DNA of 64,000 bases from Thermoanaerobaculia bacterium (GTDB lineage: Bacteria > Acidobacteriota > Thermoanaerobaculia > UBA5066): NCBI GenBank assembly GCA_963719225.1, contig CAVRAY010000001.1, positions 2,048,001 through 2,112,000 on the forward strand, in the 5' to 3' direction. The notes under the pieces were generated by a model. That model had not been told where the DNA came from. It saw only the letters and a list, made by a program, of their open reading frames with translations, and did no database searches. How positions within the stretch are numbered: position 1 is the stretch's first letter; each line of letters starts with the position of its first letter. The position numbers and the translations under genes are program-made. Shown in pieces: positions 6,921-60,540 of this stretch.

Positions 6921-6950
6921 AAGAGAGATTTTCTGAGAATGGAAGAGAGG
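6921..6950 (+). repeat. Dispersed AT/purine-rich motif, single copy (accA / methyltransferase divergent region)
   Basis: AAGAGAGATT-TTC-TGA-GAA-TGGAAGAGAGG. Confidence 0.6.
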
Positions 6951-7877
6951 ACGCCCTCGGGTTCTTCCGCGTTGGTGTGCCCGGCCTGTCACGGCGCACT
7001 TTCGGAGTCCGCTTTGGCGCTCGCGTGTCTGGCCTGCGGCCGCTCGTTTCCCGTCGACGACGGCATCGCGGACTTCGCCGAGGGCCGGTACTTCATCGAC
7101 CATCCGGATCCGACCACGCTCTCCGAGGATGTGCGTCGCGGGATGGCGAATGAGAACGAAGGCCGCCGTATCGACGATTACTACTTGCCGATCCTGCGCG
7201 CGGCAGGCGCGCGCCGCGTCCTCGATTCCGGCTGCGGCAACGGTGAGGCGGTGGACGTCCTCCTGGACGCTGGCTTCGACGCGTGGGGACACGACCTCTC
7301 GGCGTTCCGGAAGTGGCAGTGGGGTGCGCGCCGCAGGCGGGATCGACTCGTCGTCGCCGACGGCCTGAAGTTGCCGTTCGCGGACGGGTTCTTCGACGCC
7401 GTGATCTCCTCGGGCGTCCTCGAGCACATCGGCGTCTCAGAGCGCGGCGGGCCCGGAATCTACGAGGTCTCACCGCTCCCTGACCGCGACGCGAGGCGGT
7501 GGGCCTTTCTTGCGGGACTCGTGCGGGTCCTCGCGCCGCGAGGGACGCTCTACCTCGACTTTCCGAACGGTGCCTTCCCCATCGACTTCTGGCACGGGCC
7601 GACCGCCGGTGGGGCACGGTGGCATTCACCTGTCGAAGGATTCCTTCCGAGGGTGAGAGAGATCCGACGGCTCGCGGAGCGCCTGGAGCCCCCTCTCTTG
7701 GTCTCCGTGCGCTCGCCGCACCGCAGGCTGCGCTTCAACCAGGTGGGCGCACACTGGTATGGTCGCTTCTTCCGCGCTCCGATGGCGGGCTTCTACGCGC
7801 TTACGGCGGTTCGGGGCTTCACGTGGCTCGCCGCGACCCCGCTTAATCCCTACCTGACCCTGTCGCTACGCCGCTGA
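6939..7877 (+). CDS. Class I SAM-dependent methyltransferase with N-terminal Trm112-like Zn ribbon
   Basis: LVCPACH...CLACGRSFPVDDGIADF; VLDSGCGNG motif I; LPFADGFFDAVIS; VLEH; RVLAPRG. Confidence 0.85.
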   Translation: MEERTPSGSSALVCPACHGALSESALALACLACGRSFPVDDGIADFAEGRYFIDHPDPTTLSEDVRRGMANENEGRRIDDYYLPILRAAGARRVLDSGCGNGEAVDVLLDAGFDAWGHDLSAFRKWQWGARRRRDRLVVADGLKLPFADGFFDAVISSGVLEHIGVSERGGPGIYEVSPLPDRDARRWAFLAGLVRVLAPRGTLYLDFPNGAFPIDFWHGPTAGGARWHSPVEGFLPRVREIRRLAERLEPPLLVSVRSPHRRLRFNQVGAHWYGRFFRAPMAGFYALTAVRGFTWLAATPLNPYLTLSLRR

Positions 7878-8742
7878 ATCTCCTCGAGAATCCGGGCGCG
7901 ACGAAGTCTTCGCTCCCCCAGAGAAGAAGTTGAAGAACGAGGCGAGGTGTGCGCGCGGGAGGCACGGCCTTGTGGAAGCACGTTGGGTCCTCGAGGAAGC
8001 CCGTCCCCGCTGGTCCCAGGATGGTTCGAAGGCTTGCACGACCGTAGACGCCCTCGATTTCCGCGTCCTCACGCCAGCGGCTCGCGGAGAACTGGTGACG
8101 CAGAGCCTTGCGGCGGTGGCTACCGAGTACGCAGACATGAGGGCCGGCGTTCTCGTCGACGTCCGTTAAATAGAAGAAGCCACTGAGAGAACGCCATGCA
8201 TAGAGGTCGAAATGGAATCGCCGCCCCGTCTGAATCTCCTCCGAGGCGGAACCCTTTTGGGGAAAGCTCCACCAGACACGGCTACCGAGAAAACGACTCT
8301 CTCGTCCAAGCACCCGGCAGGCGAGAGGGTGCAGGTGCAGGGTGATGGTCTCCACCGGCGCCCAGACCGCCGTTTCCTCGTAGCACGCGACAATGGGACC
8401 TCCCGCGGCCTCGTATGAGGGCGCGAGGGGGTGTAACGCGGCGCGACTCTCGCGCTCCCGCGCGAGGCCGCGAATTGCTGCGAGACTCCCGGCGCTCAAG
8501 CGTAGCCCTTGAGCGAAACCCTGATGGAACAGGTCGCGCAAGATCGCAGTCTCATCGAACGGCTCTAGCGGAACATCTGCTGCGCTCTCGCGACGACGTG
8601 CGTGGGCAAGGAAGGTTCCTTTTGGAAGCCGCGGGCGCGTAAAGCGGGCGAGGGCGTACATCGAAAGCCATTCGGCCCGCCTCAAGGGTCCGGCGCCATT
8701 CTCCCGGATGACCTTCAGACAGGTACTCAGGTAGCTGATCAT
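7843..8742 (-). CDS. Phytanoyl-CoA dioxygenase-like Fe(II)/2-oxoglutarate oxygenase
   Basis: FHFD (HxD), FYLTDVDENAGPH, GSH, GPAGTGFLEDPTCFHK (distal His), RLVLQL. Visibly more A/T than its neighbours. Confidence 0.72.
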   Translation of the reverse strand: MISYLSTCLKVIRENGAGPLRRAEWLSMYALARFTRPRLPKGTFLAHARRRESAADVPLEPFDETAILRDLFHQGFAQGLRLSAGSLAAIRGLARERESRAALHPLAPSYEAAGGPIVACYEETAVWAPVETITLHLHPLACRVLGRESRFLGSRVWWSFPQKGSASEEIQTGRRFHFDLYAWRSLSGFFYLTDVDENAGPHVCVLGSHRRKALRHQFSASRWREDAEIEGVYGRASLRTILGPAGTGFLEDPTCFHKAVPPARTPRLVLQLLLWGSEDFVAPGFSRRFSGVATGSGRD

Positions 8743-8801
8743 GTCCGCGGAGGTAGTGTCTCGCAGCGGGCGGTGCCTACAGCAGGTTCGACACGCCGAC
8801 G

Positions 8802-11204
8802 CTAGAGCAGGTTTTGCGGGTCGATGTCGAGGCGCGGGGGATCCGGAAGCGCGGCGAGGAGGTGGCCGGCCTCCGCGATCGCCTCGCGGCGCTCGGCCTT
8901 GACGAGGAGGTGATAGCGCCAGAGGCCTTTCAACCTTTCGAGCGGCGCGGGCGCGGGGCCGAGAATGCGGATCTCCCGCGCGATCTCCGCCGACGCGAGC
9001 GCCTTGAATGCCGCTCCCGCGGAGGCGTGCGCTTTCGGAAGCTCGAGGTGGGCGAAGAGCGCGAGGAGGAGGTGCGTGTAAGGCGGATACCGGAACGCCT
9101 TGCGGAACCGCAGCTCCGCGTCCGCGAAGGCCGGATGGTCCTGGCTCACGGCGGCGCGGATCGCTTCGTGGTCGGGCCGGGCCGTCTGGACGGCAACGGT
9201 GCCCGGCCGATCGCCGCGGCCGACGCGTCCCGCGGCCTGTGTCACGAGCTGGAACGTCCGTTCCGCGGCGCGGAAGTCGGGAAACGAGAGGAGCGCGTCG
9301 GCGTCCAGCACCGCGAGGGCCGTCGCTTTCGGGAAGTCATGCCCCTTGGCGACCATCTGCGTGCCGAGAAGCGCCTGGGAGCGCCCGGCCTCGAAGTCCA
9401 GGAGGACGCCCGCGGCACCGCCGCGACGGGCCGCCGCGTCCCGGTCGAGGACCGCGTATGGAACTCCCGGGAAGCGCTCCTCGAAACGTTCGGCCAGGCG
9501 CTCCGTCCCGAAGCCGATCGGCATGAGGACTCCCGACCCGCACGAGGGGCACGCGGCGGGCCGCCGGATGTCGTCCCCGCAGTAGTGACACAGGAGCCTC
9601 TCGTGGCGCCGATGATAGGTGCGCGCCACCGAGCAGTTCGCGCAGCGGAAATCCTCGCCGCACGCGCGGCAGAGGAGGCTCGGAGAAAACCCCCGGCGGT
9701 TCAGGAGAAGGATCGCCTGCTCTCCCCTCTCGAAGCATTCCGAGAGGATCTCCGCCGTGCGCGAGGCGAAGAGGATCCGCCCGTGATCGCCCTCGCGCGG
9801 GCTTTCCTTGCGCAGATCGACGACCTCCACCGTCGCACGCGGACGCGCTCCCGGCCTCTCCGGCAGCGCGAGGCGCGGCAGACGGCCTTCCCGCGCGGCG
9901 CGTTCCAGCTCCATCGACGGGGTTGCCGATCCGAACACGAGGGTGGCGCCTTCCTCGTGCGCGCGCACCCGAGCCACGGCGCGCGCGTCGTAGCGCGGGG
10001 ACTCGCCCTGCTTGTAGGCGGAATCGTGCGCCTCGTCGAGAACGATCAGGCCGAGCTCCGGCAGAGGCGCAAAGACCGCCGAGCGCGGCCCCACGACCGC
10101 GTCCACGTCTCCCCGGCGGGCGCGTTCCCATTCCGCCGCGCGCTCGCCGTCGGACAGCCCGCTGTGCAGCAGGGAGACCCGGTCGCCGAAGCGACCCACG
10201 AGCCGTCGTACGAGCGCCGGCGCGAGGGCGATCTCCGGCACGAGCAGCATCCCGCGCCGGCCCGCCTCGCGGGCGGCCTCCAGCGCGGCGAGGTACACCT
10301 CGGTCTTGCCGCTCCCCGTCACGCCGTCGAGAAGAAACTCCCTCGAGACTCCGTCGCGGACGCCAGCGGAAATCGCGTCGATCGCCGCGCGCTGCGCCGC
10401 CGTGGGAACCGGCCTCTTGTCGCCGGAGAACGCGCCGACGTGCCGCGCGAGGTCCGTGCGCCGCTCGATCTCGACGGCCGAAACGAGTCCCGCCTTCGCG
10501 AGGGCCGCGAGAACGGCGGGCGAGCCCCCGGCGGCGCGAAGCTCCTCGGTCGACGCGGGTCGACCGAGCGCGAGGAGGTGCGCGTGCAGGGCGCGCCGTT
10601 TCGCCGAGCGTTGGAGCGCGGGATGGCCGTCCGGAACCGGCCGCGCGACCCAGGCCCGATCCGAGGGAGCAGCTGCGGCGCGCAGGTTTTCGGAACGGAT
10701 CCGCACGAGTCCGTCGGCGACGAGCTGCTTGAGAGCCGAAGCGAGACCCCTTCGCCCGGCCCCCGCCGCGAGCTCCGGAAGGCGGGCCTCGCCCATTTCG
10801 AGAAGCGTGCCGAGGATCTTCCCCTCGACGCCGTCCGCCGGCGCACCGACGGCCCGAGAGGTGGGAACGTAGACCGCTTCGGACGCGGCGAGGAGGCGCG
10901 CGGGAACCGCGGATCGGAGGATCTCTCCCGGCGGCACGAGGTAATACGCGGCGGCGCGCACGAGAACGCTCACGAGGCGCTCCGGGAGAAAAGGCGCGTC
11001 GTCGAGCGCCGCCACGACGTCACGTTCCAGCGTGCCCTCGGGAGCGGGGGGAGGGTCCAGCGCGGCCACGAGACCCGTCGCGAGGGCGCTCCCGAACGGC
11101 GCCGCGACGCGCGCTCCCGGTACGAGGACGCCGACGTCCTCCGGCACCCGGTAGGTCGGCAAGCCCGGGAACCGGTTGGGAAGGAGAAGCGCGACGCGCG
11201 TCAG
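8802..11204 (-). CDS. priA: Primosomal protein N' (replication restart helicase)
   Basis: GVTGSGKTEVY, LVPEIAL, DEAH, SATPS, LNRRGF, four CxxC pairs, GTQMVAKGHDF, GPAPAP. Start uncertain: CTG 11204 proposed, first canonical codon is TTG 11162. Confidence 0.96.
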   Translation of the reverse strand: MTRVALLLPNRFPGLPTYRVPEDVGVLVPGARVAAPFGSALATGLVAALDPPPAPEGTLERDVVAALDDAPFLPERLVSVLVRAAAYYLVPPGEILRSAVPARLLAASEAVYVPTSRAVGAPADGVEGKILGTLLEMGEARLPELAAGAGRRGLASALKQLVADGLVRIRSENLRAAAAPSDRAWVARPVPDGHPALQRSAKRRALHAHLLALGRPASTEELRAAGGSPAVLAALAKAGLVSAVEIERRTDLARHVGAFSGDKRPVPTAAQRAAIDAISAGVRDGVSREFLLDGVTGSGKTEVYLAALEAAREAGRRGMLLVPEIALAPALVRRLVGRFGDRVSLLHSGLSDGERAAEWERARRGDVDAVVGPRSAVFAPLPELGLIVLDEAHDSAYKQGESPRYDARAVARVRAHEEGATLVFGSATPSMELERAAREGRLPRLALPERPGARPRATVEVVDLRKESPREGDHGRILFASRTAEILSECFERGEQAILLLNRRGFSPSLLCRACGEDFRCANCSVARTYHRRHERLLCHYCGDDIRRPAACPSCGSGVLMPIGFGTERLAERFEERFPGVPYAVLDRDAAARRGGAAGVLLDFEAGRSQALLGTQMVAKGHDFPKATALAVLDADALLSFPDFRAAERTFQLVTQAAGRVGRGDRPGTVAVQTARPDHEAIRAAVSQDHPAFADAELRFRKAFRYPPYTHLLLALFAHLELPKAHASAGAAFKALASAEIAREIRILGPAPAPLERLKGLWRYHLLVKAERREAIAEAGHLLAALPDPPRLDIDPQNLL

Positions 11205-11851
11205 ACGCGCGTCCTCGGTTTCTGGTCGGGCGTCTCGTCGGGCGCGTCCTCGTCGACCTGGGTTCGCCGGGACACGTCGTCGGCGTCGACGAAGCGCTTT
11301 TCTCCGGGCTCCCAGCGCCAGCGGCGCGTCGGATCGAGCGCGAGGTCGGGCGTCACGATGAGGAGCGAGCGCTCGATCGAAAGGTCGCCGGCGGCGAGAG
11401 AAACCGCCCGCTCGACCCAGAGAGGCTTCTGAAAAGTCCCCTCCCCGGTCCCGAAGAAAACGGCCACGTGGAACCAGACGCCGGTCGAACCCTTCTCCAC
11501 GAACGCCTGCGCGAAGTCCAGCCGTCCATCGCCGTCCAGGTCGCCGCGGACGAAGAAGGGGTGATAGCTGCCGTAGACATCCTCGAGGTCGCGGTGCTCG
11601 TCGGATTCCACCGCATCGCCGTCTTCGGCGGCGCGCAGAACCAGTCCCGACTTCCGGAAGGCGGCGAGAGCTTCCTCGATGGCGACCTTCTCGCCCTTCG
11701 TCCGGCCCGAGGCGTCGAGCCCGCGCGTGTCCGGCACGGGCGGCGCCGCCCGCGCGGGCCTGGGCACACGCCTCGTGAGCACGACGGCTGCCGCGACGAT
11801 CGCGGCGGCACCCACGAAGACGAAGAGGACCTGGCGGGGGCGAGCGCTCAC
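11201..11851 (-). CDS. Membrane-anchored hypothetical protein with one FG-GAP/Ca-binding-like loop
   Basis: GTG overlapping the udg stop; TM segment VLFVFVGAAAIVAAAVVL; RGDLDGDGRLDFA. Confidence 0.65.
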   Translation of the reverse strand: MSARPRQVLFVFVGAAAIVAAAVVLTRRVPRPARAAPPVPDTRGLDASGRTKGEKVAIEEALAAFRKSGLVLRAAEDGDAVESDEHRDLEDVYGSYHPFFVRGDLDGDGRLDFAQAFVEKGSTGVWFHVAVFFGTGEGTFQKPLWVERAVSLAAGDLSIERSLLIVTPDLALDPTRRWRWEPGEKRFVDADDVSRRTQVDEDAPDETPDQKPRTRV

Positions 11852-12708
11852 TTCTCTTTTCCTTTGCGGGTCGGGGGCTCGATTCCGAGCCTCGCGAGGA
11901 CGGCGAGGAGATCCTCCCACGCCTCTTTCTTCTGGGCAGGCTGCCGGAGGAGGAACGACGGATGGAAGGTCGGCATCACCGGGATCCCCCGGTAGCTCCC
12001 CCACTTCCCGCGCAACCGCATGATCCCCTCATCCGTCTCGAGGAGAAACTGCGCGGCGAACTTTCCGAGCGCGACGATCACCTCGGGCTTCACGAGGTCG
12101 ATCTGCTTCTCGAGATACCCTCGGCAGGACGCGATCTCGTCGGGCTCCGGATTACGGTTGTCGGGCGGCCGGCACTTCAGCACGTTCGCGATGTAGACGG
12201 ACGAGCGCGGCAGCCCCATGCCGTCCTCGATCATCTTCGTCAGGAGCTGTCCGGCGCGGCCCACGAACGGTACGCCCTGGGCGTCCTCGTCGGCGCCGGG
12301 CGCCTCCCCGATGAACATGATCCGGGCGTCGGGGGAACCGTCGGCGAAGACAGTCTGCTTGCGGGTCTTGCAGAGGCGGCACGTGACGCAGGAAGAGACG
12401 ACCCTTGCTAAAGACTGCAGCTCCAAGGCCGGCGCGCTTCGAGCGGCCGGCGAGTCGACGGGATCCAGGGAATTTTCTTCGAAGGTGAATAGGGGCGGCG
12501 GTTCAGGCTGGGCCGCCCCTGCGGATCCTGCCGCGGCGTTGCCGCCCGCCCTATTCCCTTTCAAAGAAATCTCTCTCTTCTCGTGCTCTTCGGACGCAGC
12601 AGGACCCAAAGATGGCGTCAGGTACAGCTCCGCCACTCCCAGGTCTCTGTAATACGCCAGGGTTTCCCTGAGCGCGTCGAAGCCGGGGCCGGGCCGCGCG
12701 GGGGTCAC
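11848..12708 (-). CDS. udg: Uracil-DNA glycosylase family 4 (Fe-S)
   Basis: CxxC(RL)[37 protein letters not shown]; low-complexity N-terminal linker. Confidence 0.93.
12469..12582. repeat. Dispersed motif, head-to-head pair inside udg
   Basis: + GGAATT-TTC-TTC-GAA-GGTGAATAGG (centre 12479); - GAGAT-TTC-TTT-GAA-AGGGAATAGG (centre 12564). Confidence 0.72.
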
Positions 12709-13603: not shown

Positions 13604-14485
13604 TCATTCGACGTTCTGCACCTGTTCCTTGAAGGTCTCGAGATCCGACTTCAGGTCGAGGACGAGCTTCGTGGCGCCGACCTCGCGCACCTTCGCCCCG
13701 GACGTGTTCACCTCGCGGTGGAGCTCCTGCGCCAGGTGGTCGAGGCGACGCCCCACGGGTCCCGGCGACGCGAGCAGGCGCCGCACCTCCGCGACGTGTG
13801 TCTTTAGACGATCGATCTCCTCGGTGATGTCGGCGCGGTCGGCGAGCTGCGCCACCTCCTGCGCCAGGCGGGCTTCATCGAGCGGCACCCCGGCGGCGAG
13901 CTTCGCGACGCGCTCGGCGAGGTTCCTTTGAATACGTTCCGAGATGCCGACTCGTTCCGCGTCGAGTCGGGTCACTCCGGCCTCGATCCTCTTGAGGATT
14001 TCTTCGAAGGTAAGAGAAAGAGCCGCGCCTTCGCGAGCGCGGGTCGAGTCGAAGTCGGCGAGTGCCTTTTCGACCAGAGAAACGAGGATTTCTTCGAAGG
14101 TGTCCTCGCCCGGCGCGGCCTCTTCCTGCCGGACGACGCCCGGCAGACTGAGGAGGTCGCGCGCCGAGAGCTCACCGGGCAAGCCTCGATTCGAAGAATC
14201 TTCTCTCCACGCCTTCGCGTATTGCTCCGCCGCCGCCATGTCGAGTCGGGCCGCCGGCCCCGCCCCGCCTGCGGGACGCGTCGTTCGTATCAGGATGTCG
14301 ATGTGGCCCCTTTGCGCGACCTTCGCGACCGCCTTGCGGATCGCGGACTCAGCCGAGGCGTATTCGTCGCGCAGCTTCACCGAGACGTCCAGGAAACGGT
14401 GGTTCACGCCGCGGGCCACGACGTTCGCTTCCGTGCCGTCCGGCAGAGTCCCGGCCGCCCGGCCGAATCCGGTCATGGACTTCAT
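13604..14485 (-). CDS. yicC: YicC/YloC family endoribonuclease
   Basis: MKSMTGFG, VNHRFLD, DITEEIDRL, GRRLD, QELHREVNT, EQVQNVE; yicC-gmk-rpoZ synteny. Confidence 0.95.
   Translation of the reverse strand: MKSMTGFGRAAGTLPDGTEANVVARGVNHRFLDVSVKLRDEYASAESAIRKAVAKVAQRGHIDILIRTTRPAGGAGPAARLDMAAAEQYAKAWREDSSNRGLPGELSARDLLSLPGVVRQEEAAPGEDTFEEILVSLVEKALADFDSTRAREGAALSLTFEEILKRIEAGVTRLDAERVGISERIQRNLAERVAKLAAGVPLDEARLAQEVAQLADRADITEEIDRLKTHVAEVRRLLASPGPVGRRLDHLAQELHREVNTSGAKVREVGATKLVLDLKSDLETFKEQVQNVE
13994..14208. repeat. Dispersed motif, three copies inside yicC
   Basis: GAGGATTTCTTCGAAGGT twice (centres 14004, 14094) plus minus-strand GAGAAGA-TTC-TTC-GAA (14194). Confidence 0.72.
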
Positions 14486-16383: not shown

Positions 16384-17537
16384 GCGCGGCTCTCCGGGAC
16401 GGCCGCCGCGAGAGCCGCCAGAAGAGCGTCCGCCGTGCGGCCCGGCGCGCCGGGCGGACCGAGGTCGGCCGCGCCGCGGGCGAGCTTCGCACGCGTCGCC
16501 GCCGCGAGCGCGGGGTCCTGGAGGAACCGGGCGGCCTCCCGCGCGACGTTCTCTGGCGTCGCGTTGCCCTGGAGGAGCTCCGGGACCGTGCGCGCGCCGG
16601 TGCCGTCGTCCGAGACGATGTTCGCCATTGCGACGTGGGCGACCTTCACGAGCCGCTTGCCGATCCAGAAGCTCACGGGATGGATCTTGTAGACGACGAC
16701 CATCGGGACCCGGGCGAGGAGTCCCTCGATCGTCGCGGTTCCCGACGCGACGAGGAGGACGTCCGAGGAGGCGAGGAGTGCCAGGTGCTCGCCGCACACG
16801 ACGCGCCACGCCGCCAGCGACTCTCCAACGAATTCCTCGAAGAGCGCCCGCGGGATCGAGTCGGCCTGGACGAGAACGACCTCGAGGTCCGGCCATTTCT
16901 TTCTAAGAATCTCGACGGCGTCACGAAGCACCGGGAGGACGGATTCGACTTCGCCCTTCCGCGAGCCCGGCATGAGGACCAGCCGATGGACCCCGGGCGG
17001 GGGCGGCGCGGCGGGGCGCGCGAGCTCGCGCGCCGCCGCCTCCACGAGGGGATGCCCGACCCACGTGACGCGCGCGCCGAGGCCGCGCGCGTCGTACCAC
17101 CTCTTCTCGAACCCGAAGAGCACGAGGACGGCGCGACCGATCCGCGCGATCGTCTTCGCGCGCCGACTCCGCCACGCCCAGACCTGGGGCGAGACGTAGA
17201 AGACGACGGGAATCCCGGCGCGAAAGAGCCTCTTCGCGAGCGGGAGGTTGAAGTCGGGCGAGTCGATGAGGACGGCGGCGTCCGCCTTCTGCCTCACGGC
17301 CTCGGCGGCGAGCGAGGCGATGAGCCTCCGGGCGAAACGCAGCTTGGCGATCGCCTCGACGAGTCCCACGACCGCGAGGTCCTTCTGGTGCGCGAGAAGG
17401 CGCATGCCGGCGAGCCGGCAGCCTTCGCCGCCGATGCCGAACGTCTCGAGCACTGCGACACGCGCGCCGAGGGCCGAAAGCAGCGCGCTCGCATGCTGGT
17501 CGCCCGAGACCTCTCCCGCCACGACGAGGAGTCTCAA
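16380..17537 (-). CDS. lpxB: Lipid-A-disaccharide synthase
   Basis: AGEVSGD, IDSPDFN, YVSPQVWAWR, VGHPL, PGSR, ASGTAT, PELLQ. Confidence 0.96.
   Translation of the reverse strand: MRLLVVAGEVSGDQHASALLSALGARVAVLETFGIGGEGCRLAGMRLLAHQKDLAVVGLVEAIAKLRFARRLIASLAAEAVRQKADAAVLIDSPDFNLPLAKRLFRAGIPVVFYVSPQVWAWRSRRAKTIARIGRAVLVLFGFEKRWYDARGLGARVTWVGHPLVEAAARELARPAAPPPPGVHRLVLMPGSRKGEVESVLPVLRDAVEILRKKWPDLEVVLVQADSIPRALFEEFVGESLAAWRVVCGEHLALLASSDVLLVASGTATIEGLLARVPMVVVYKIHPVSFWIGKRLVKVAHVAMANIVSDDGTGARTVPELLQGNATPENVAREAARFLQDPALAAATRAKLARGAADLGPPGAPGRTADALLAALAAAVPESRA
16830..16913. repeat. Dispersed motif, head-to-head pair inside lpxB
   Basis: + GAA-TTC-CTC-GAA-GAG (16837); - GAGA-TTC-TTA-GAA-AGAAA (16905). 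Confidence 0.5.
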
Positions 17538-23134: not shown

Positions 23135-23295
23135 AAAGAGAGAAAGAAAGAAAGATTTGCTTAGAAGGCAATAGGGCCTGGCCCCGCTCCGTCCGCGCCG
23201 CGCCGCTTCTGCTCATCGTTCCGTCCTATTAACCATTCGAAGAATCTTCCTCTTCCTCTTCTTCTTTTCCCCTCTTCTCTTCAGCAGAAGTCTCC
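23135..23295. repeat. Dispersed motif pair with long purine tracts at the scpB/rluB junction
   Basis: + GAAAGAAAGATT-TGC-TTA-GAA-GGCAATAGG (23162); - GAGGAAGA-TTC-TTC-GAA-TGG (23240). Confidence 0.72.
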
Positions 23296-26350: not shown

Positions 26351-28531
26351 TCAGTCCCCCGCCGGCAGGCTCGCCGCGCGAAGAAAGAGCGGCTCGCGGA
26401 ACGCGGCGTCGCCTCCGGCCGCGATGATCTTTTCCGCCTCGTCGCGGGCTTCCTTCATCCACCTCACGTCGCGGACGAGATCGCCGACGCGGAAGAGAGG
26501 GACGCCGCTCTGGCGCGTTCCGAGCGCGTCGCCGGGGCCCCGGCGACGGAGGTCCTCCTCGGCCACGACGAAGCCGTCGTCCGTCTTCTCGAGGATCCCG
26601 AGCCGTTCGCGCGACTCCATCGAGACCTTCGGCCCGAAGAGGAGGACGCAGCGCGAGACACGCCGGCCACGCCCGACGCGCCCCCGCAGCTGGTGGAGCT
26701 GCGCGAGGCCGAAGCGCTCCGCGTTCTCGACGAGCATGTAGGAGGCGTTCGGGACGTCGACGCCGACCTCGATCACGGTCGTCGCCGCGAGGATGTCGAG
26801 TCGCCCGCCTGCGAACTCTCCCATCGTGCGCTCTCGCTCCTCTGGGGGCAGGCGGCCGTGAACGACGCCCACGCGGCGGCCGGGGAGCGCTCTCCGGATC
26901 TCGTTCGCGTGCTTCTCGACCGCGCGCGCCTCGATCTTGTCCGACTCCTCGATGAGCGGAACGACGACGTAAGCCTGGCCTCCCGCGCGGATCTCGCCCT
27001 CGATCTCTCGGAACGCGGCCGCGCGCTCCACCTCCGGAAGGACGCGCGTCGTGATCGCCGTTCGGCCCGGAGGCTTCTCGTCGAGCGTCGAGACGTCGAG
27101 GTCGCCGTAGAGCGTCAGCGCGAGGGAGCGCGGAATCGGCGTCGCGGACATGACGAGGAGATGGGAACGCGCGCCGGGCTCGGCTTTCGCCGCGATCGTC
27201 GTCCGCTGCGCGACGCCGAAGCGATGCTGTTCGTCGATCACGATGAGTCCGAGCCGCCGGAACTCGACGGGGTCCTCGAGGAGCGCGTGCGTTCCGACGA
27301 GGAGGTCGATGCGGCCGCCCGCGAGCGCGTCGAGGAGCTGCGCGCGCGTCTTCCCTTTCACCCGGCCGGTCAGGAGCTCGGCGCGGAATCGCGTCTTGCC
27401 GAAGATCCGGAAGATCGACGAAAAGTGCTGCTCCGCGAGGATCTCGGTCGGCGCCATGAGCGCCGTCTGGAAGCCGCACTCGGCGGCGAGGATCGCCGAG
27501 AGCACGGCGACGATCGTCTTCCCGCTTCCGACGTCTCCCTGGAGCAGCCTTCGCATCGGGCGGCCCGCCCGGAAGTCCGCGCCGATCTCCCGGATCACGC
27601 GCTTCTGCGCCCCCGTCAGGGTGAACGGAAGCGCGTCCTTGAGTCGCGCGCGGATCGTCTCGTCGGCCGACAGGACGGGAGCCGGCACGGCCGCGCGCTC
27701 CCGGCGGCGGCGCTGCAATCCGACCTGAAACTCCAGGAACTCCTCGTACACGAGGCGGTGGAGATATGGCGAACGCCGCTCTGTCCACTCCTCCGCGTCC
27801 GCTCGGCCCCCGGCGCTGCCCGGGAAATGGGCTTCTCTCAGCGAGTCGGCGAGAGAAGGGATTTTTTGCTCCCTCCCGCCAATGCCATCGAGTCGCTCGG
27901 GGAGATGGTCTGCAAAATTTCTTAGAAGGCGGAAGACGAGAGTTCGCCGCGCCCGCGGCGTCAGTCCCGGCAACTTGCGATAAATGGGCACCACCCGGCC
28001 GACCGATAGCGGGTCCACTGCGCGCCTCGTTCTTTCACCCTTGCCTGCACCCTTTCCCGTACCGTTCCCCTTTCCCTCTTCCCCTTCTAAGAATTCTTCT
28101 ATTTGTTCTTCTACTAATTCTTCTATCTGAGGGTTCTCCATGACGAGACCGCGCCGATAACGAGCGGACTGTGTCGCGACGCCGTAAACCCAGAACGTCT
28201 TCTTCGGCGTCATCCATCTCTGGAGGTATGGCTGGTTGAAGAAGACGAGGCGGAGGGGGCCCGAGCCGTCGTCGAGGATCGCCTCGAAGATCGTGAAGCC
28301 GCGGCGCCGCGTGCGGATCAGGCGCGCGGAAAGGACCGTGCCCTTGACCGTCGTCGCGGGGCCCTCCGGCACGAGATCCGCGATCGGCGCGATGCGCGTC
28401 CGGTCCTCGTAGCGGAAAGGCAGATGGAGGAGGAGGTCGAGAGCCGATTCGACCCCCGCCTCGGCCAGCTCGCGGGCCCGCGCCGCGCCGATGCCGGGGA
28501 GGTTCGCGAGGAGCGGCAGCGGGACGGGAAT
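26351..28531 (-). CDS. recG: ATP-dependent DNA helicase RecG
   Basis: QGDVGSGKT, DEQHRFG, SATPIPR, QLRGRVGR, RGPG...QSG. The conserved N-terminus LPGIG...DLLLHLPFRYED lies in frame upstream of the tracked GTG (28372), so the start is near 28519-28531. Confidence 0.96.
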   Translation of the reverse strand: MPVPLPLLANLPGIGAARARELAEAGVESALDLLLHLPFRYEDRTRIAPIADLVPEGPATTVKGTVLSARLIRTRRRGFTIFEAILDDGSGPLRLVFFNQPYLQRWMTPKKTFWVYGVATQSARYRRGLVMENPQIEELVEEQIEEFLEGEEGKGNGTGKGAGKGERTRRAVDPLSVGRVVPIYRKLPGLTPRARRTLVFRLLRNFADHLPERLDGIGGREQKIPSLADSLREAHFPGSAGGRADAEEWTERRSPYLHRLVYEEFLEFQVGLQRRRRERAAVPAPVLSADETIRARLKDALPFTLTGAQKRVIREIGADFRAGRPMRRLLQGDVGSGKTIVAVLSAILAAECGFQTALMAPTEILAEQHFSSIFRIFGKTRFRAELLTGRVKGKTRAQLLDALAGGRIDLLVGTHALLEDPVEFRRLGLIVIDEQHRFGVAQRTTIAAKAEPGARSHLLVMSATPIPRSLALTLYGDLDVSTLDEKPPGRTAITTRVLPEVERAAAFREIEGEIRAGGQAYVVVPLIEESDKIEARAVEKHANEIRRALPGRRVGVVHGRLPPEERERTMGEFAGGRLDILAATTVIEVGVDVPNASYMLVENAERFGLAQLHQLRGRVGRGRRVSRCVLLFGPKVSMESRERLGILEKTDDGFVVAEEDLRRRGPGDALGTRQSGVPLFRVGDLVRDVRWMKEARDEAEKIIAAGGDAAFREPLFLRAASLPAGD
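27914..28128. repeat. Dispersed motif pair inside recG
   Basis: + AAAAT-TTC-TTA-GAA-GGCGGAAG (27923); - AGAAGAA-TTC-TTA-GAA-GGGGAAGAGG (28089). Confidence 0.72.
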
Positions 28532-29408: not shown

Positions 29409-29810
29409 GACTCGGGCCGGACGATAAGCCGGATTCTGTAACTGGTCGGTTCGCACCTTCCAGCCGGCGGTCATTCCTCCAGGCCCGCTCTCTCGAGCGG
29501 GCTCGAGCGACCGACCCGGCGACGTCGGCGTGAGCCGCGGGGGCGGGCACCCCTTCCGTCACCCTATTTGGTCTTGCTCCGCGTGGGGTTTCGCCTGCCG
29601 GTCCCGTTGCCGGAACCGCGGTGCGCTCTTACCGCACCTTTTCACCCTTACCTGCGCCTTGCGGCGCGTCGGCGGTATGTTTTCTGTGCCACTTTCCTTC
29701 GAGTTGCCCCGACCGGAATTTCTCCGGCACGCTGCCCGCGGGAGTCCGGACTTTCCTCCCCTCCTTCCGCCGAGGCGTCGGGAGCGGCGACCGCCTGTCC
29801 GGCCCGAGTC
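29409..29810 (-). ncRNA. rnpB: RNase P RNA
   Basis: Minus strand has GAGGAAAGTCCGG near the 5' end and ACAGAATCCGGCTTAT near the 3' end (P4). Terminal P1 helix: 29409-29422 pairs with 29797-29810. TAAACT -10 box 6 nt upstream. Confidence 0.97.
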
Positions 29811-41789: not shown

Positions 41790-42987
41790 GTCGCACCTCC
41801 GGCTCGCCGAGCGCCGCCATCGCCGCCTCGAATTCCCGCGACTTCGCCTCCGTCTCGCGCCACTCGGCCTCCGCGTTCGAGTCCCACACGATTCCGCCTC
41901 CCGCGTGGTAGTCCACTGTATCCCGGCCGAGGATCGCCGTCCGGATCGCGACGTTGAAAACCGCCCGGCCGTCGCCGCGCACGAATCCCGTGGCTCCGCA
42001 ATACGCGCCGCGCGGCACCGTCTCAAGGTCGCGGATGAACCGCAGCGCCGCGCGCTTCGGCGCCCCCGTGATCGAGCCTCCGGGCAGCGTCGCGCGGAGG
42101 ACGTCGGAAAGCCGCACCTCCGGCCGCAAGCGCGCCTCCACCGTGGATTCCAGGTGATGCAGGTGGCGGAAGGACGTCAGCGTCCTCAGCGCGGTCGTCT
42201 CGACCTGCCCCGGCTCGGCCACCTTGCCGAGATCGTTCCTCAGGAGGTCCACGATCATCACGTTTTCGGCGGCGTCCTTAGGGGAAGTCAGAAGTTCACG
42301 GCGCCGGGCGGCGTCCTCGGCCTCCGTCGCGCCGCGGCCGATCGTGCCCTTGATCGGCTTCGTGACCGCGCGCCGCGCCGCGAGATCCACGTCGAGGAAC
42401 AGCTCCGGCGAGTTCGAGACGACGGCCCAGTCGTCCTCGGCGAGCGTCATGGCGAAGGGCACGGGGTTGTCGCGGTAGAGGGCATGTGCGAGGGCAACGG
42501 GCTCGACGCGTCCCGCGAAGCGCGTGCGGCGCGAGAGATTGACTTGATAGACGTCGCCGCGGGCGATCCCGGCGCGGATGGCCTCGACACCTCTCCTCCA
42601 TGAGTCCGAGGAGAGCACGCGCTCCGCGCGTGCCGGTTCTTTGAAGGTGAATAAAGAAGATTCGGATGGGGATGGCGGCGCGGAACGTTGGACGCCGGAG
42701 CGGCGGCCATCGAAAACGGAGAATTCTGCGAAGGGAAGAAATTCATGCTGCCTGACGAGCCCCGTCGAGCCTTCGAGGAAAACGCCCGCTTCGTAGGAAA
42801 TGAACCCCGCGGCGATGAGGTTCGGATCGCCTGACTCTGCGATTTCGTCCAGCGACGCGAGCACGTCGGGCAGCTGCCGAGGAGTTTCGGCGCGCAGGAT
42901 TCTTTCTTCACCTTCTAAGAAAATCCCGGGTCCTCTTCCCTCTCCCAGTCCCCACCCCTCCCCGTTGAAGAGAACGTTCATGGTCAT
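41779..42987 (-). CDS. pabB: Aminodeoxychorismate synthase / anthranilate synthase component I family
   Basis: GFISYEAG, GDVYQVNLS, SPELF, KPIKGT, AENVMIVDLLRNDL, PGGSITGAPK, FNVAIRT, GGGIV. Confidence 0.8.
   Translation of the reverse strand: MTMNVLFNGEGWGLGEGRGPGIFLEGEERILRAETPRQLPDVLASLDEIAESGDPNLIAAGFISYEAGVFLEGSTGLVRQHEFLPFAEFSVFDGRRSGVQRSAPPSPSESSLFTFKEPARAERVLSSDSWRRGVEAIRAGIARGDVYQVNLSRRTRFAGRVEPVALAHALYRDNPVPFAMTLAEDDWAVVSNSPELFLDVDLAARRAVTKPIKGTIGRGATEAEDAARRRELLTSPKDAAENVMIVDLLRNDLGKVAEPGQVETTALRTLTSFRHLHHLESTVEARLRPEVRLSDVLRATLPGGSITGAPKRAALRFIRDLETVPRGAYCGATGFVRGDGRAVFNVAIRTAILGRDTVDYHAGGGIVWDSNAEAEWRETEAKSREFEAAMAALGEPEVRREP
42636..42927. repeat. Dispersed motif, three copies in the pabB 5' region
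   Basis: + TTC-TTT-GAA-GGTGAATAAAG (42641); + GAA-TTC-TGC-GAA-GGGAAG (42728); - GGGATT-TTC-TTA-GAA-GGTGAAGAAAG (42917). Confidence 0.7.
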
Positions 42988-52683: not shown

Positions 52684-53480
52684 CCGCGATGAGCGCGGTG
52701 ACCGCGCGGGCGGAGGCGCTTCCGGCGCCGACCGTATCCGACATCCTTTCGCGGCGCGCGCGTACCGGCATCGCCCCGCGATTCCTCACGGCTGCCGTGT
52801 CGATCCTCGCCCATGCGGGATTCCTCGCGCTCGTTCTCCTCGTGGGCAAACCGCGCAAGTCTCCGGTCTTCGTCCCGATGTCCCTTCCCGTTCGCGTCGT
52901 GAGCCCAGCCTCCCTCGGCCGGCCCCAGGCGGCGCCGGCGCCCGTTCCCGTCCCGGCGCCCGCCGAGCCGGCGCCCGCGCCCAAGGCGAAGCCCGTGATC
53001 GAGAAGCCGACGGAAAAGGTCCTTCCGTCCGCGAAGGCGATGCCCGAGCCGAAGAGGCCCGCGAAGCCCGAGAAACCGAAGCCCGCCCCGGCCGCCGCCA
53101 AGCCTTCCGGAGGACCCGCCCTCGAGCTTCCGAGCGCCGCGGGCGCCCCGACCGGCAGCACCTCGGGCGCGGGAGTCTCCTTCGGAGCGTCCGTCACCTC
53201 GTTCGACGCCGATTTCCCGTTCGCCTACTACGTGGAGCAGCTGCTCTCGCTGATCGGCGCGAACTGGTTCAAGCCCGAGTCGGCCGAGAATACGAGCTGC
53301 GTCATCTCGTTCCGCGTCATGCGTTCCGGGCAGGTCACGGACGTCAAGGTCGACACCTCGTCGGGCGTGAGCTATTACGACCGGGCCGCGGCTCGCGCCG
53401 TATACGCCGCGAATCCGCTCCCGCCGCTCCCGCCGGATTACCGGAACGAGTCGCTCGGCGTCCATCTAAAGTTCCAGTGA
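52680..53480 (+). CDS. tolA: TolA/TonB-like energy transducer
   Basis: TM with SxxxH, Pro/Lys-rich linker, C-terminal SSG..YD.AA.RAV..NPLPPLP. Confidence 0.8.
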   Translation: MTAMSAVTARAEALPAPTVSDILSRRARTGIAPRFLTAAVSILAHAGFLALVLLVGKPRKSPVFVPMSLPVRVVSPASLGRPQAAPAPVPVPAPAEPAPAPKAKPVIEKPTEKVLPSAKAMPEPKRPAKPEKPKPAPAAAKPSGGPALELPSAAGAPTGSTSGAGVSFGASVTSFDADFPFAYYVEQLLSLIGANWFKPESAENTSCVISFRVMRSGQVTDVKVDTSSGVSYYDRAAARAVYAANPLPPLPPDYRNESLGVHLKFQ

Positions 53481-53549
53481 GGGAAATTCTTTGAGAGAAA
53501 TAGAAGAGAGAAAAGAGAAGATTTCCTTGAAAGGGGAAGAAAGAGGGGG
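53481..53549 (+). repeat. Dispersed motif, two copies at the tolA/tolB junction
   Basis: GAAA-TTC-TTT-GAG-AGAAATAG (53491); GAGAAGAT-TTC-CTT-GAA-AGGGGAAG (53527). Confidence 0.7.
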
Positions 53550-54933: not shown

Positions 54934-54997
54934 TCGGCGCCGACGGGCGGTCGCCGGACGGCGCCCTCATTCCCCCCGTCAACGGAGGCTCGATTCC

Positions 54998-56406: not shown

Positions 56407-56439
56407 ACGATTCACAGAGAAAGGCACCCTCGAACCCAC

Positions 56440-56718
56440 ATGGCGAACACCAAGCAAGCCAAGAAGCGCGCCGCGCAGAGCGACCGACGCCGCGCCCGCA
56501 ATCGCTCCGTCGTCACCCAGGTCCGCAACGTCGTGAAGAACCTCCGGAGGACGGCGGAAGCCGAGGCCGCCAAGGTCGGCGGCATGCTTTCGAACGCCGT
56601 CTCCGAGCTCGACGTCGCCGTGCGGAAGGGCGTCCTCCACAGAAAGACCGCTTCCCGCCTGAAGTCGCGGATCTCGAAGACCGCGAACAAGGCGAAGAAA
56701 GCCGCCGCCGCGAAATAG
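56440..56718 (+). CDS. rpsT: 30S ribosomal protein S20
   Basis: MANTKQAKKR...KGVLHRKTASRLKSR. Confidence 0.97.
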   Translation: MANTKQAKKRAAQSDRRRARNRSVVTQVRNVVKNLRRTAEAEAAKVGGMLSNAVSELDVAVRKGVLHRKTASRLKSRISKTANKAKKAAAAK

Positions 56719-56754
56719 GAGAAGAAGAAAGAAGATTCTTTGAAAGGGAGAGAG
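56718..56754 (+). repeat. Dispersed motif, single copy after rpsT
   Basis: GAAGAAAGAAGA-TTC-TTT-GAA-AGGGAGAGAG (56740). Confidence 0.72.
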
Positions 56755-57294
56755 CTGCCGTCAATTCTGATGTGCGCGGTGGCGCTTTTCTCCGCACCCC
56801 TCTCTGCGGAAGTGACGAGCGTCGGCGCGAGCGGCTTCGCCGTGAGGCACGAGGTCCCTATCAACGCCGCGCCCGGCATCGTCTACGACGCGCTCACCGT
56901 CAAGGTCGGGAGCTGGTGGAACCCCGTCCACACGTACTCGAAGGATTCGAAGAACCTGTCGATCGCGGCCGTTCCCGGCGGCTGTTTCTGCGAGAGGTTT
57001 CCGGACAGCGGCGGCGTCCAGCACATGACCGTCGTCTACGCCAGCCCGGGCAAGGCGCTGCGGATGGCGGGCGCGCTCGGTCCCCTGCAAGCTTCCGGCC
57101 TATCCGGGAGCATGACGTGGGAGCTCGCGAAGGCTGGAACCGGCGCCAAGCTCGTCGTCACGTACGTCGTCGGGGGCTACATGGCGGGCGGATTCGAGAA
57201 GATCGCGCCGGGGGTGGACGCCATGGTCGGGGACCAGGCCATGAGGCTCAGGACGTTTCTGGAGACCGGCAGCCCCGCCCCTCCCGTGAAGTGA
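56740..57294 (+). CDS. Exported SRPBCC/Bet v1-like (AHSA1-like) protein
   Basis: Signal-like N-terminus; VYDAL...WW...HTYS...GGCFCE...GALGPL. Confidence 0.7.
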   Translation: MKGRELPSILMCAVALFSAPLSAEVTSVGASGFAVRHEVPINAAPGIVYDALTVKVGSWWNPVHTYSKDSKNLSIAAVPGGCFCERFPDSGGVQHMTVVYASPGKALRMAGALGPLQASGLSGSMTWELAKAGTGAKLVVTYVVGGYMAGGFEKIAPGVDAMVGDQAMRLRTFLETGSPAPPVK

Positions 57295-57313
57295 GACTCA
57301 GGAGAGTCAGTTT

Positions 57314-57931
57314 CTAGAAGCCTTCGAGGATCGTCGTGACGAGGTTCTGCGCGAACGGGCGGGCCATCGCCTCGATCGCCTCGCGCTCGCGGTCGTAATA
57401 CGAGCTCGCGCTCGAGGGCACGGTGTAAGGCTGCCGGAAGAGGTATGCCGGCTCGGAGAAGATCGGCTTGTCGGTGGCCTTTTCGGTCAGGACGAGCTTT
57501 CCCGAGACCGTCACCTGGTATTCGACCGCGATCCCGTTCGCGTCGAAGCGGACGGGCGCAACCGAGCAGGACGTCAGCCGCCCCGACAGCTCGGAGTCCG
57601 CCGCGGCCCTGTCGGACACGGGCTTGAGACGGCCGCGCGCGGACAGCTCCCGAATGACGGCGTCCGTGAGGCGCTGCTCGAGCCCCACGACCGTCGTGTC
57701 GTTGATGAACGTCGGCACATAAACCGTCTTGACGCCGACCGGCAGCGCGCTCGTCCCGGTGCCCACGAGCGAGTACCCACAGCCGGAAACGGAGAATAGG
57801 AAAATGATCAAGAAAGAGAAGAGAAAGACTTCTTTGAAAGGGGAAGTACCCGGAGCGCGGCACCGGCCGCGCGGTGCGACGGACGTCCGCCCGCGACCAC
57901 TCGAAGAATCTTCTCTTCCTTCTTCCGTCAC
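57314..57931 (-). CDS. lptE: LPS assembly lipoprotein LptE-like
   Basis: Lipobox VSGC followed by GYSL; VYVPTFIN.T; directly after leuS (GTGA overlap) as in conserved leuS-lptE. Confidence 0.8.
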
Positions 57932-58057
57932 TTGACGACCAGATTCAGCAGTCGGTCCTGCACCCAGATGGTCTTCACTATTTGCTTGCCGTCCAGCCAA
58001 CGAGAGAGCGTCGCCTCATCCTGAGCCGCGGCTACCGCTTCCTTCTCAGAAGATCCT
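57792..58057. repeat. Dispersed motif, three copies across lptE 5' / leuS 3'
   Basis: + GAGAAAGAC-TTC-TTT-GAA-AGGGGAAG (57834); - GAGAAGA-TTC-TTC-GAG-TGG (57904); - GGATC-TTC-TGA-GAA-GGAAG (58047). Confidence 0.7.
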
Positions 58058-60540
58058 CTTCGAAGCTTGATCTCGGCACGTACCTTTCCCGACACCTGTA
58101 TTGCAATCGACGCGACCTCCTCTTTCGCGAGCGCGGGATCGAAGCTCGGCCAGCCCGACTCGAGGAGGCTCTTCCTGCCGCCCAGCCTCTCGTTCAACTC
58201 TTCGGAGAGATGCGGCGCGACGGGATGGAGGAGCGTCACGAGCGTGCGCAGCGTCGTTGCGGTCTCGCCCGCGTCCGCGCCCGCGTCGTTCAGAAGGACC
58301 GTCGCGCCGTTGAGGAATTCCATGAGGTGCGCAACGGCCGTGTGGAACGAGAACGCCCGGAAGTCCTCCGTGACCTTCTTGATCGTCATGTGCCGCGCGC
58401 GCGCCGCCGGGGTGTCGGCCTTCGCCGGCTGCGCCTGTGGATCGGCGCCCGTCTCGAGGAACCGCTCGACGGCGCTCCGAACGCGCCAGAGAAAGCGCTC
58501 CGGCCCGCTGATGCCCTCGTCGTTCCATTCGGCGTCCTTCTCCGGGGGGCCGAGGAAGAGGACGAACGCGCGCACGGCGTCAGCGCCCTTCTCGGCGATG
58601 AGCGCGTCGAGCGACACGGCGTTGCCGCGCGACTTCGACATCTTCTCGACGCGACCCGTCGGGGACAGACGCGTGATCATGCCCTGGTTGAAGAGGGCCG
58701 TGAACGGCTCCTCGAACGTCACGAGGCCGAGATCCTTCAGGATGCGCGTGAAGAAGCGCGCGTAGAGGAGATGCAGGATCGCGTGCTCGATGCCGCCGAT
58801 GTACTGGTCGACGGGGGCCCACTCCTTCACGAGAGAGGGGTCGAAAGGCGCCGCGGCGTTCTGCGGATCGATGTACCTCAGGAAATACCAGGACGAGTCC
58901 ACGAAGGTGTCCATCGTGTCGGTCTCGCGGCGGGCAGGCCCGCCGCACCGAGGACACTTCGTCTGCACGAAGGAAGCGACCTTCTCGAGCGGATTTCCGC
59001 CCTTGCCCGTGAACGGCGCGTCGGGCGGCAGGACGATTGGAAGGTCCTTCTCCGGTACGGGCACCCACCCGTCCTTCTCACAGTGGATCATGGGAATCGG
59101 CGTACCCCAGTAGCGCTGGCGCGAGATGAGCCAGTCGCGGAGGCGGTAGCGCACGCGGGGCCCGCCGATCCCTCTCTTCGCGGCTTCGGCGGCAATGAGT
59201 TCGCGGGCAGAAGAGGAAGATTTTGCTGAGAAGGGACCAGAGGCAATGAGGTTTCCTTCGCCCGTGTAGGCGACCGAAGGGACGTCGGCACCGCCGGAAT
59301 GAGATTTGTTCGAGTGGTCCCTCGCAGGCGCGACGCCGGAGCCCGAGGCGCCGCCCGACGCACGTGTTTCGCCCTTCCCCTTTTCCCCTCTAAGCAAATC
59401 TTCTTCTTTCTTCTTCTCTTCTTCGATCACGCGAACGATCGGGATCCCGTACTTCCTCGCGAACTCGAAGTCGCGCGTGTCGTGCGCGGGCACCGCCATG
59501 AGCGCGCCCGTGCCGTAGTCGGCGATGACGAAGTTCGCGAGCCACACGGGCACTTCCACTCCCGTGAAGGGGTTGATCGCCGTGCGGCCGGTGTCGCGGC
59601 CGTCCTTCTCGGCGCCCTCGGCCTCGCGCACGATGCGCTCCTGGCTGCGGACGGACGCGACCCAGGCTTCGAGCTCGGCCCGCTTCGGGCTGCCTTCGAG
59701 AAGCCGCGGGACGAGCGCGTGCTCGGGCGCGAGGATGAGCGCCGTCGCGCCGAAGACCGTGTCGGGGCGCGTCGTGAAAACGCGCACGGATTCGTTCAGC
59801 GAAGGGATCGCGAAATCCAGGTCGGCGCCCGTGGACCTTCCGATCCAGTTGCGCTGCATCGTCACGACTTTTTCGGGCCACTTGCCGAGCGTGTCGAGGC
59901 CGTCCAGCAGGCGATCCGCGTAGTCGGTGATCTTCAGGAACCACTGCTCGAGCTCTCGCTGCACGACCGCAGTGCCGCAGCGGTCACAGACGCCCCCCTC
60001 GGCCTGCTCGTTCGCGAGCACGGTCAGGCACGACGGGCACCAGTTCACGGCGGCCTTCTTGCGGACCGCAAGGCCCTTTTCCCAGAGCTTCAGGAAGAAC
60101 CACTGGTTCCAGCGGTAATAGTCGGGCTCGCAGGTCGTGACTTCTTTCGTCCAGTCGTAGAGGACGCCCCACGACCGGAACTGCTCCTTCATGGCCGCGA
60201 TGTTCGCGAGCGTCGACGTGCGCGGGTGGATGCCCTTCTGGATCGCATAGTTCTCCGCCGGCAGGCCGAACGCGTCCCAGCCCATCGGGCAGAACACCGT
60301 CACGCCCGTCTGTCGCAGGAAGCGATGGAGCGCGTCCGTGAGGAAATACGTGCGCGCGTGCCCGACGTGGAGGCGATCTCCCGATGGATAGGGAAGCATG
60401 ACGAGGAGATACGTTCCATCGCCCGCCGGCTGCGACGTGTCGACGAACGCCGCCCGTTCCGCCTCCCAGCGGTCGCGCCATTTCGCCTCGATCCTGAGGA
60501 TTTCTTCGCCTTTTGCCGTGGCGGTCGCGGTGCGGTCCAT
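57928..60540 (-). CDS. leuS: Leucine--tRNA ligase
   Basis: [46 protein letters not shown]. Confidence 0.98.
59209..59424. repeat. Dispersed motif, three copies inside leuS
   Basis: + GAAGATTT-TGC-TGA-GAA-GG (59228); + GAGAT-TTG-TTC-GAG-TGG (59310); - GAAGAAGATT-TGC-TTA-GAG-GGGAAAAGG (59392). Confidence 0.7.

Follow-up and report, generated by a model that had tools for sequence, protein, structure and literature searches.

Facing pairs of a directional DNA motif, densest around dif, in two genera of uncultured Acidobacteriota

RESULTS

A directional motif recurs within and between the genes of the window

The window analysed here is a stretch of 64,000 nucleotides from a Thermoanaerobaculia bacterium (GenBank assembly GCA_963719225.1, contig CAVRAY010000001.1, positions 2,048,001 to 2,112,000 of the forward strand), in which a polar AT-rich DNA motif recurs in 12 clusters in and around genes such as udg, yicC, lpxB, recG, pabB and leuS (Table 1). 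Gene calls are approximate, being made with a hexamer model built for this analysis, and the genes of the window were named with Pfam. A sequence-only reading had listed 25 copies by core centre and strand (F, plus; R, minus), grouped them into these 12 clusters and placed the most similar ones in udg and pabB. All 25 cores are present at the positions and on the strands given, and clusters and gene assignments stand as listed. Scored with the weight matrix described below, 22 of the 25 copies reached at least 14 bits and 14194R was weak (12.2 bits). The remaining two are 59310F (1.6 bits), a decayed real copy whose orthologous site scores 16-21 bits in four relatives, and 16837F (-4.5 bits), which is indistinguishable from chance, as had been anticipated for some degenerate copies.

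Table 1. Copies of the motif in the window and the genes that they overlap
Positions	Strand	Copies	Context
6923..6949	+	F copy, 31 bits	overlaps methyltransferase gene start codon, upstream of divergent accA
12467..12576		facing pair 12479F/12564R, 85 bp	uracil-DNA glycosylase (udg), N-terminal linker
13992..14206		14004F, 14094F, 14194R (weak)	within yicC
16891..16917	-	16905R; listed partner 16837F at chance level	within lpxB
23150..23252		facing pair 23162F/23240R, 78 bp	from gap after scpB into scpB last codons
25620..25646	+	25632F	first codons of trpS
27911..28101		facing pair 27923F/28089R, 166 bp	within recG
42629..42929		42641F, 42728F, 42917R	N-terminal part of pabB
53479..53541	+	tandem 53491F, 53527F	junction of TonB/TolA-like gene and tolB
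56728..56754	+	56740F	directly after rpsT
57822..58059		57834F, 57904R, 58047R	leuS-lptE gap into leuS end
59216..59404		59228F (written in by substitution), 59310F (decayed), 59392R (in-frame insert)	leuS; 59392R in editing-domain loop

The matrix was seeded on 23 of the 25 copies and refined on the source genome of the window, G000 (4.75 Mb in two contigs, C1, which holds the window, and C2). The resulting consensus is a purine tract followed by (A/T)TTTCTTMGAA(G/A/T)G(G/T)RAAR, a directional unit of about 30 bp in which core positions C(-2), G(+2) and A(+3) each occur at 99%. The formula first proposed, a polar AT-rich motif with a TTC...GAA core, holds in this form, its core being better written as TTCT-T-MGAA. 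Genome-wide, 937 sites scored at least 14 bits, of which 622 lie in predicted coding sequence, in agreement with the earlier claim that copies occur both inside and between genes.

In the first 2 Mb of C1, 403 sites reached at least 14 bits and 329 at least 20 bits; the corresponding numbers in two trinucleotide block shuffles were 22 and 10, and 1 and 1. In predicted coding sequence, 417 sites of at least 22 bits contrasted with 11-16 in three amino-acid-preserving dicodon resamplings and with 24-25 in two within-gene synonymous permutations. Because these counts lie far above both the shuffles and the amino-acid-preserving nulls (417 versus 11-25 across the coding nulls), the motif passes the test by dicodon-preserving shuffle and codon usage on which the sequence-only reading had staked its claim. 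Given that a matrix trained on G000 itself favours the observed count, independent confirmation comes from a fixed pattern found in other genomes and in metagenome loci (see below). The motif is thereby confirmed as real.

The sites form facing pairs at preferred distances

Among neighbouring sites in G000, 297 pairs ran F-then-R at 30-300 bp and only 10 ran R-then-F (back-to-back) at less than 260 bp, and 654 of the 937 sites had a facing partner up to 300 bp away. The unit is accordingly the facing pair and not the single copy, as had been assumed. The same orientation prevailed in the relative G441 (68 facing versus 4 back-to-back in 400 kb) and in G419, a member of a second genus (14 versus 0 in 400 kb). 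In GC-rich metagenome loci with full flanks, picked by one site and with 11 low-GC loci set aside, a partner lay on the inside in 67 of 94 and on the outside in none, while weak partners of lone sites (191 sites) were inside in 49 cases and outside in 3. Each pair points its long purine tails outward and encloses GC-rich host sequence; the 297 spacers form no sequence family, paralogous kinase genes excepted.

Pair distances drop off sharply below about 67 bp, have a main mode at 73-81 bp (about 77 bp) and a second peak near 136 bp, and tail off to about 250 bp. No helical phasing of 10.5 bp was detected among the periods of 8-14 bp tested. By contrast, distances of 95-235 bp followed a 28.5-bp period (global p 0.0035; 462 of 564 pairs kept after removal of homologous ones), the phase of which extrapolates to 77 bp, the main mode, which was outside the fit. 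In G000 alone the period gave p 0.079, and the other genomes alone ranked a 9.5-bp period first, not 28.5 bp. The ladder is suggestive only and serves as a lead rather than as a result.

Because two facing sites are reverse-complementary, a pair could act as a long-range stem, formed on either strand, in RNA or in single-stranded DNA during processing, termination or recombination. True pairs have a slightly lower duplex energy than shuffled ones (-27.0 versus -26.5 kcal/mol, z about 2), there is weak covariation at positions -3 and +1, and in leuS orthologues, which come from related genomes, the -3 variant is often the same in both partners. However, partners are no more similar to each other than to shuffled partners (12.9 versus 12.8, 255 pairs); identity over 28 bp was not raised in any of the distance classes, and near-perfect pairs were not over-represented. 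Back-to-back copies would pair equally well and yet are rare, and no Rfam family matches any motif site in the window. A stem is thus a poor candidate, and we would be surprised to find it correct.

Site density falls from dif to oriC

The dif site lies at C1:2037570-2037595, 10 kb to the left of the window, and is itself flanked by two motif pairs. At the other end of the chromosome, dnaA and parS lie at about 327-334 kb of C2, with a motif pair at oriC (C2:330787/330930). The part of C2 at about 500-800 kb repeats sequence from C2:0-250 kb and C1:0-100 kb (75-85% protein identity); it is probably a contaminant, a related organism joined into the contig. With this part omitted and the contigs assumed to be joined end to end, oriC and dif are about 2.2 Mb apart both ways. 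From dif to oriC, the density of sites of at least 18 bits was 28.9, 22.9, 14.6 and 9.4 per 100 kb, alike on both chromosome arms, and at the same threshold the fall was seen in intergenic (101 to 33 per 100 kb) as well as coding sequence (20 to 6.8). In genes shared with G462, of a motif-free genus, 41 sites were found in 174 kb near dif versus 21 in 251 kb beyond 1.2 Mb, with protein conservation being equal (63.8% near, 64.5% far). Since shared genes fall alike with equal conservation, the gradient is not due to gene content or to protein tolerance. In G441, among the 100 matches listed of 109, 64 lay in the 1.5 Mb around dif; the first 1.0 Mb held 24 and the interval 2.5-3.33 Mb held 11.

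The position of sites relative to genes and replichores was otherwise unremarkable. Lone sites had no replichore strand bias (44/54 and 48/42), both orientations being equally frequent on both arms; an ordinary skew of FtsK-orienting polar sequences (KOPS) exists separately from the motif. Intergenic density showed no excess in convergent or divergent gaps (52 convergent, 78 tandem and 53 divergent per 100 kb), and 555 of the 937 sites are mid-gene. Without enrichment at gene ends or in convergent or divergent gaps, the sites do not resemble intrinsic terminators or promoters. Sites occur within a ribosomal protein operon and on both sides of an rRNA operon, while long site-free stretches are rich in accessory-looking genes, as judged by reading of gene content.

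The motif is confined to two genera

A fixed pattern matched 50-244 times in each of the 29 genomes from the own genus and 11-49 times in each of the 8 from one other genus; the remaining 138 genomes of the order had 0-5 matches (background). A stricter pattern matched 0-2 times in 297 genomes drawn across the phylum. These negative tallies take in the unpublished genomes G024, G049, G358 and G385, none of which carries a claim alone. Phyla beyond Acidobacteriota were probed with a strict paired pattern, which gave 1 record, from an uncultured Acidobacteriota, among 185,579 species genomes, from which the own and near genomes may be left out. No dialect, meaning a paired or AT-rich dispersed motif, was seen in 788 kb of the motif-free G462 or in 80 kb around dif of each of five genomes from two sister families; positive controls were detected. 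Two weak matches at the end of an insertion sequence-like element were low-score matches, and insertion sequence ends were set aside. The motif is confined to two genera of uncultured Acidobacteriota. Its description was not found in the literature searched, which largely excludes subscription journals and supplements.

Genomes with the motif are smaller and have fewer tyrosine recombinases, with means of 4.3 (n=29) and 3.8 (n=8) in the two genera versus 9.9 in motif-free family members (n=26).

Polar sites in both orientations could also be a two-way self mark, like Chi in both directions, at which a nuclease or defence complex moving along the chromosome would halt, foreign DNA without the mark being destroyed. 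The long site-free stretches with many accessory-looking genes and the low recombinase numbers are what such a mark would leave behind, although the recombinase contrast goes back to a single evolutionary event and parallels genome size. To halt a translocase from either side, two sites need not lie within 250 bp of each other. Moreover, the 28 viral matches obtained (24-55% GC) had no typical pair and no protein match to G000. We therefore hold a self mark to be quite improbable.

Sites are written into conserved proteins and retained

At 71 sites in core genes, of which 58 could be aligned, protein identity to G462 was 0.30 versus 0.60 overall. The 58 aligned sites comprise 42 colinear substitutions and 16 in gaps, and 13 more sites fell outside the alignments. 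Sites were kept at orthologous places in 44 of 57 cases in G441 and 25 of 48 in G419, and fourfold-degenerate core positions were more conserved than expected against G441 (43 of 58, versus 0.58). The drop in identity and the retention at orthologous places indicate selection at the DNA level.

The leuS gene carries both kinds of site. The substitution-written one scored at least 12 bits in 18 of 19 sequences of the first genus; its partner, an in-frame insert of variable length, was present in 15 of 19 and in 2 of 5 sequences of the second genus, and both were missing in 7 motif-free genomes. The insert carrying 59392R lies in the editing-domain loop and is absent from motif-free genera. Some leuS copies are whole in-frame inserts with variable purine tails. 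Even essential genes carry sites, and in leuS, ileS, recG and genes for ribosomal proteins the DNA-level signal takes precedence over the protein sequence; the odd Glu/Lys-rich and poly-Ser inserts of these proteomes are explained as DNA-driven rather than as protein features. As a separate observation, a tandem array of Ser/Thr kinase genes (G000 C1:2293000-2320000) has a poly-Ser insert after SFEEIP that corresponds to the motif's pyrimidine tail.

Such whole inserts, together with tandem copies that are somewhat more alike than random ones (16.6 versus 14.7 of 27, 18 pairs), would fit remains of a mobile element, be it a miniature inverted-repeat transposable element, a REPIN or a protein-coding palindromic element, or functionless mutational deposits. 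Hundreds of inverted doublets with short spacers also recall repetitive extragenic palindromes (REP), bacterial interspersed mosaic elements (BIMEs) and REPINs with their RAYT transposases. BIMEs, which are candidate supercoil barriers (PMC6907758), lie mostly between genes, whereas 622 of the 937 sites here lie in coding sequence. The spacers are unrelated host sequence, often conserved coding frames, and most aligned core-gene sites (42 of 58) are colinear substitutions. The enzymes do not fit either: Y1 transposase (RAYT, PF01797) was not found in G000 and is present in two motif-free genomes, reverse transcriptase occurs in just 3 of 19 genus members, and some motif-rich genomes have just two tyrosine recombinases. 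Considering also that sites persist across two genera, a mobile or functionless origin is already largely refuted and very improbable.

Placement in permissive parts of core proteins resembles that of the DNA uptake sequences (DUS) of Neisseriaceae and the uptake signal sequences (USS) of Pasteurellaceae, and molecular drive could have spread the motif as a signal for uptake or self-recognition in natural transformation. In its lineage restriction and its density of about one site per 5 kb it is also similar to DUS as described in PMC2397512. ComEC is present, and a ComEA-like gene (named by sequence reading) has three sites in or beside it. However, DUS work singly and their inverted pairs act as terminators within 21 nt (PMC2397512), whereas here most sites (654 of 937) are paired, at 60-250 bp and mostly in genes. 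ComEC is equally present in two motif-free genomes, and the sister lineages showed no dialect. Core genes near dif are only slightly richer than others (23.6 versus 19.0 per 100 kb, the latter class including core genes outside the 820 kb compared), and uptake does not predict a terminus gradient. An uptake signal is accordingly unlikely.

Candidate reader proteins are undetected or shared with motif-free relatives

A second parAB operon lies directly beside dif in 19 of 19 family genomes fetched, motif-bearing and motif-free; in G000 it is at C1:2037865-2039524, about 9 kb to the left of the window, and the usual parAB at oriC is also present. The dif-side ParB keeps the CTPase motifs and has a changed recognition helix, in which the clades differ solely at the residue corresponding to ParB 179 (A versus T); this residue is variable among homologues (PMC7383237). 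As most genomes of motif-bearing and motif-free genera alike have two ParB genes, the second ParB was rejected as the reader. In 13 of 19 genomes a 15-bp palindrome, CC(G/T)(A/T)A-N5-T..GG, precedes the XerD arm of dif at a constant distance of 32 bp. Three boxes like it occur upstream of lexA (C1:1590309), which makes a LexA box the more likely identity, and the palindrome was dropped as a site for the second ParB.

Other candidates fared no better. An HU subtype looked motif-specific in 5 genomes but was found in 95 of 105 genomes of a motif-free family (a tally that takes in the unpublished genomes G301, G358, G410 and G024). A composition screen listed 110 basic proteins, one of which was tested. 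This very basic, uncharacterised protein of 164 amino acids (C1:3836045-3836539, minus strand) has two small repeated domains and an AT-hook-like stretch, with no Pfam match over the cut-off. Of 62 family genomes, 55 encode it, and it is almost absent beyond the family, which makes it a nucleoid-protein candidate in its own right, but its presence in 22 of 26 motif-free family members excludes it as the reader. Histones were not detected (PF00808 in 0 of 5 genomes, PF09123 in 0 of 31), although divergent ones could be missed, and MatP (PF06303) was found in 0 of 5 genomes with the E. coli control positive. Reverse transcriptase, found in 3 of 19 members of the genus, was rejected, as was an additional tyrosine recombinase, since no constant third one exists. 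A synteny-based comparison covering about 15% of one motif-free genome gave no candidate among the gained genes listed. As an observation beside this comparison, an ArsR-methyltransferase-like regulator and an ahcY-like gene (names by sequence reading) follow metK at C1:2031481-2033789 in motif-bearing genera and not in matching motif-free loci.

Having no gained gene in the syntenic blocks or among the candidates examined is what would be expected if the copies were preferred sites of a conserved enzyme (gyrase, topoisomerase IV, SMC-ScpAB or FtsK) with its specificity changed in the ancestor of the two genera. These enzymes are needed most near the terminus, and the second spacing peak, near 136 bp, roughly matches the stretch of DNA wrapped by gyrase. 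However, the main peak is at 77 bp, sites are not enriched between convergent genes, where positive supercoils build up, and such enzymes have loose preferences, in contrast to the nearly invariant core. We regard a changed enzyme as improbable.

DISCUSSION

Of the three functions proposed by the sequence-only reading, sites for a chromosome-organising protein fit best, because the copies are set facing each other with a preferred spacing and thin out symmetrically away from dif; uptake explains neither gradient nor facing, and a purely structural element leaves the core unexplained. We accordingly predict, with about even chances of being right, that the copies are paired sites for a lineage-specific chromosome-organising protein. 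The nearly invariant core combined with freely varying partners suggests a reader protein that recognises DNA in double-stranded form, and the strict facing orientation with a minimum distance suggests that the two bound sites of a pair act together. Such a protein would clamp or coat the 60-250 bp between two facing sites of about 30 bp. Since distances lack 10.5-bp phasing, sliding, or filling of the gap by polymerising repeated units, would be favoured over a rigid loop, and the 28.5-bp ladder, should it prove real, would reflect the footprint of each such unit. Classes of protein able to bend, wrap or coat DNA are known (PMC11894785). The symmetry of the gradient about dif, by analogy with MatP (PMC6907758), points to a job in late chromosome events, which may be SMC unloading, decatenation or terminus tethering. 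The function is inferred.

Several observations weigh against a chromosome-organising protein. All reader candidates were undetected or shared with motif-free relatives. The gradient is only threefold and leaves sites at oriC, unlike that of matS, and clusters are clumped rather than evenly spaced (coefficient of variation 1.46). Fourfold-degenerate core positions showed no excess conservation against G419 (16 of 36, versus 0.51). The slight partner covariation at -3 (p 0.012, resting on 6 pairs) and at +1 (p 0.002), in 13 tests, is not explained by independent binding. Finally, with period and phase fixed beforehand, the ladder was weak outside its discovery set, giving p 0.037 in 28 metagenome pairs that are mostly from homologous loci, p 0.33 in the 5 new pairs among them and p 0.35 in 31 weak partners.

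A bolder form, which we put forward tentatively and think considerably more likely wrong than right, is a bacterial chromatin-positioning code: from facing boundary sites at about 450 fixed places, a protein of no known family would polymerise or wrap in steps of about 28.5 bp (77, 105, 134, 162 and 191 bp), graded toward the terminus, strong enough to rewrite essential proteins and invented once in the two-genus ancestor.

Among known systems, MatP/matS offers the closest parallel in placement, with dispersed sequence-specific sites concentrated around the terminus and bridging by protein oligomers proposed. The 13-bp matS motif has 23 copies, spaced by about 35 kb and all within the Ter macrodomain (PMC6907758). 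The motif shares the enrichment around dif but differs in having about 900 directional 30-bp sites in close facing pairs on a threefold gradient, with 9.4 per 100 kb near oriC and MatP not found in 5 of 5 genomes. Organisers of this kind are known almost only from enterobacteria and vibrios, with other bacteria left open (PMC7188993).

The half-site TTTC...GAA resembles parS, and the second parAB operon beside dif invites comparison with ParB/parS and with Noc and its binding sequences (NBS). Both parS and NBS are even palindromes, and Noc sites avoid the terminus. The motif, by contrast, is odd-spaced and polar, and the second ParB is found in motif-free genera with nearly the same recognition helix. 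Noc and SlmA sites failed their defining tests and were rejected. KOPS, Chi and Ter/Tus are likewise polar signals linked to replication geometry, but they are strand-biased by replichore, whereas the motif has no such bias. A recombinase site that inverts its spacer would call for a recombinase, and no constant third tyrosine recombinase was found, serine recombinases not having been searched for. No strand-changing joint was seen among 15 joints listed of 78, from contigs of four runs, which is uninformative on rare inversions, and no sequencing run covers more than 22% of the window.

Taken together, the motif is closest to matS in where it sits and to DUS/USS in the way genes accommodate it, and it fails defining features of both as well as of REP/BIME, parS/NBS and KOPS/Chi. 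The claim of an undescribed chromosome-wide cis-element is supported. We view the motif as a far-removed variant of dispersed site-specific chromosome signals, with a real chance of being a new kind. A lineage of Acidobacteriota has gained a signal at the DNA level; with so sharp a boundary within one order (37 genomes with, 138 without), comparing gene contents should lead to the reader, and the geometry of the pairs lends itself to direct binding tests.

Additional observations

Three further features were observed. RNase P RNA (Rfam RF00010) at window positions 29409-29806, minus strand, is the sole Rfam match in the window. Short tandem heptamer arrays (GTTTCAA/GGTTTCA and AATTCAC-type) occur in both orientations in intergenic DNA around dif of genome G405. 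GC-rich palindromes of the form CGAG-N3-CTCG are about threefold over-represented in G462 and G000, possibly driven by codon usage.

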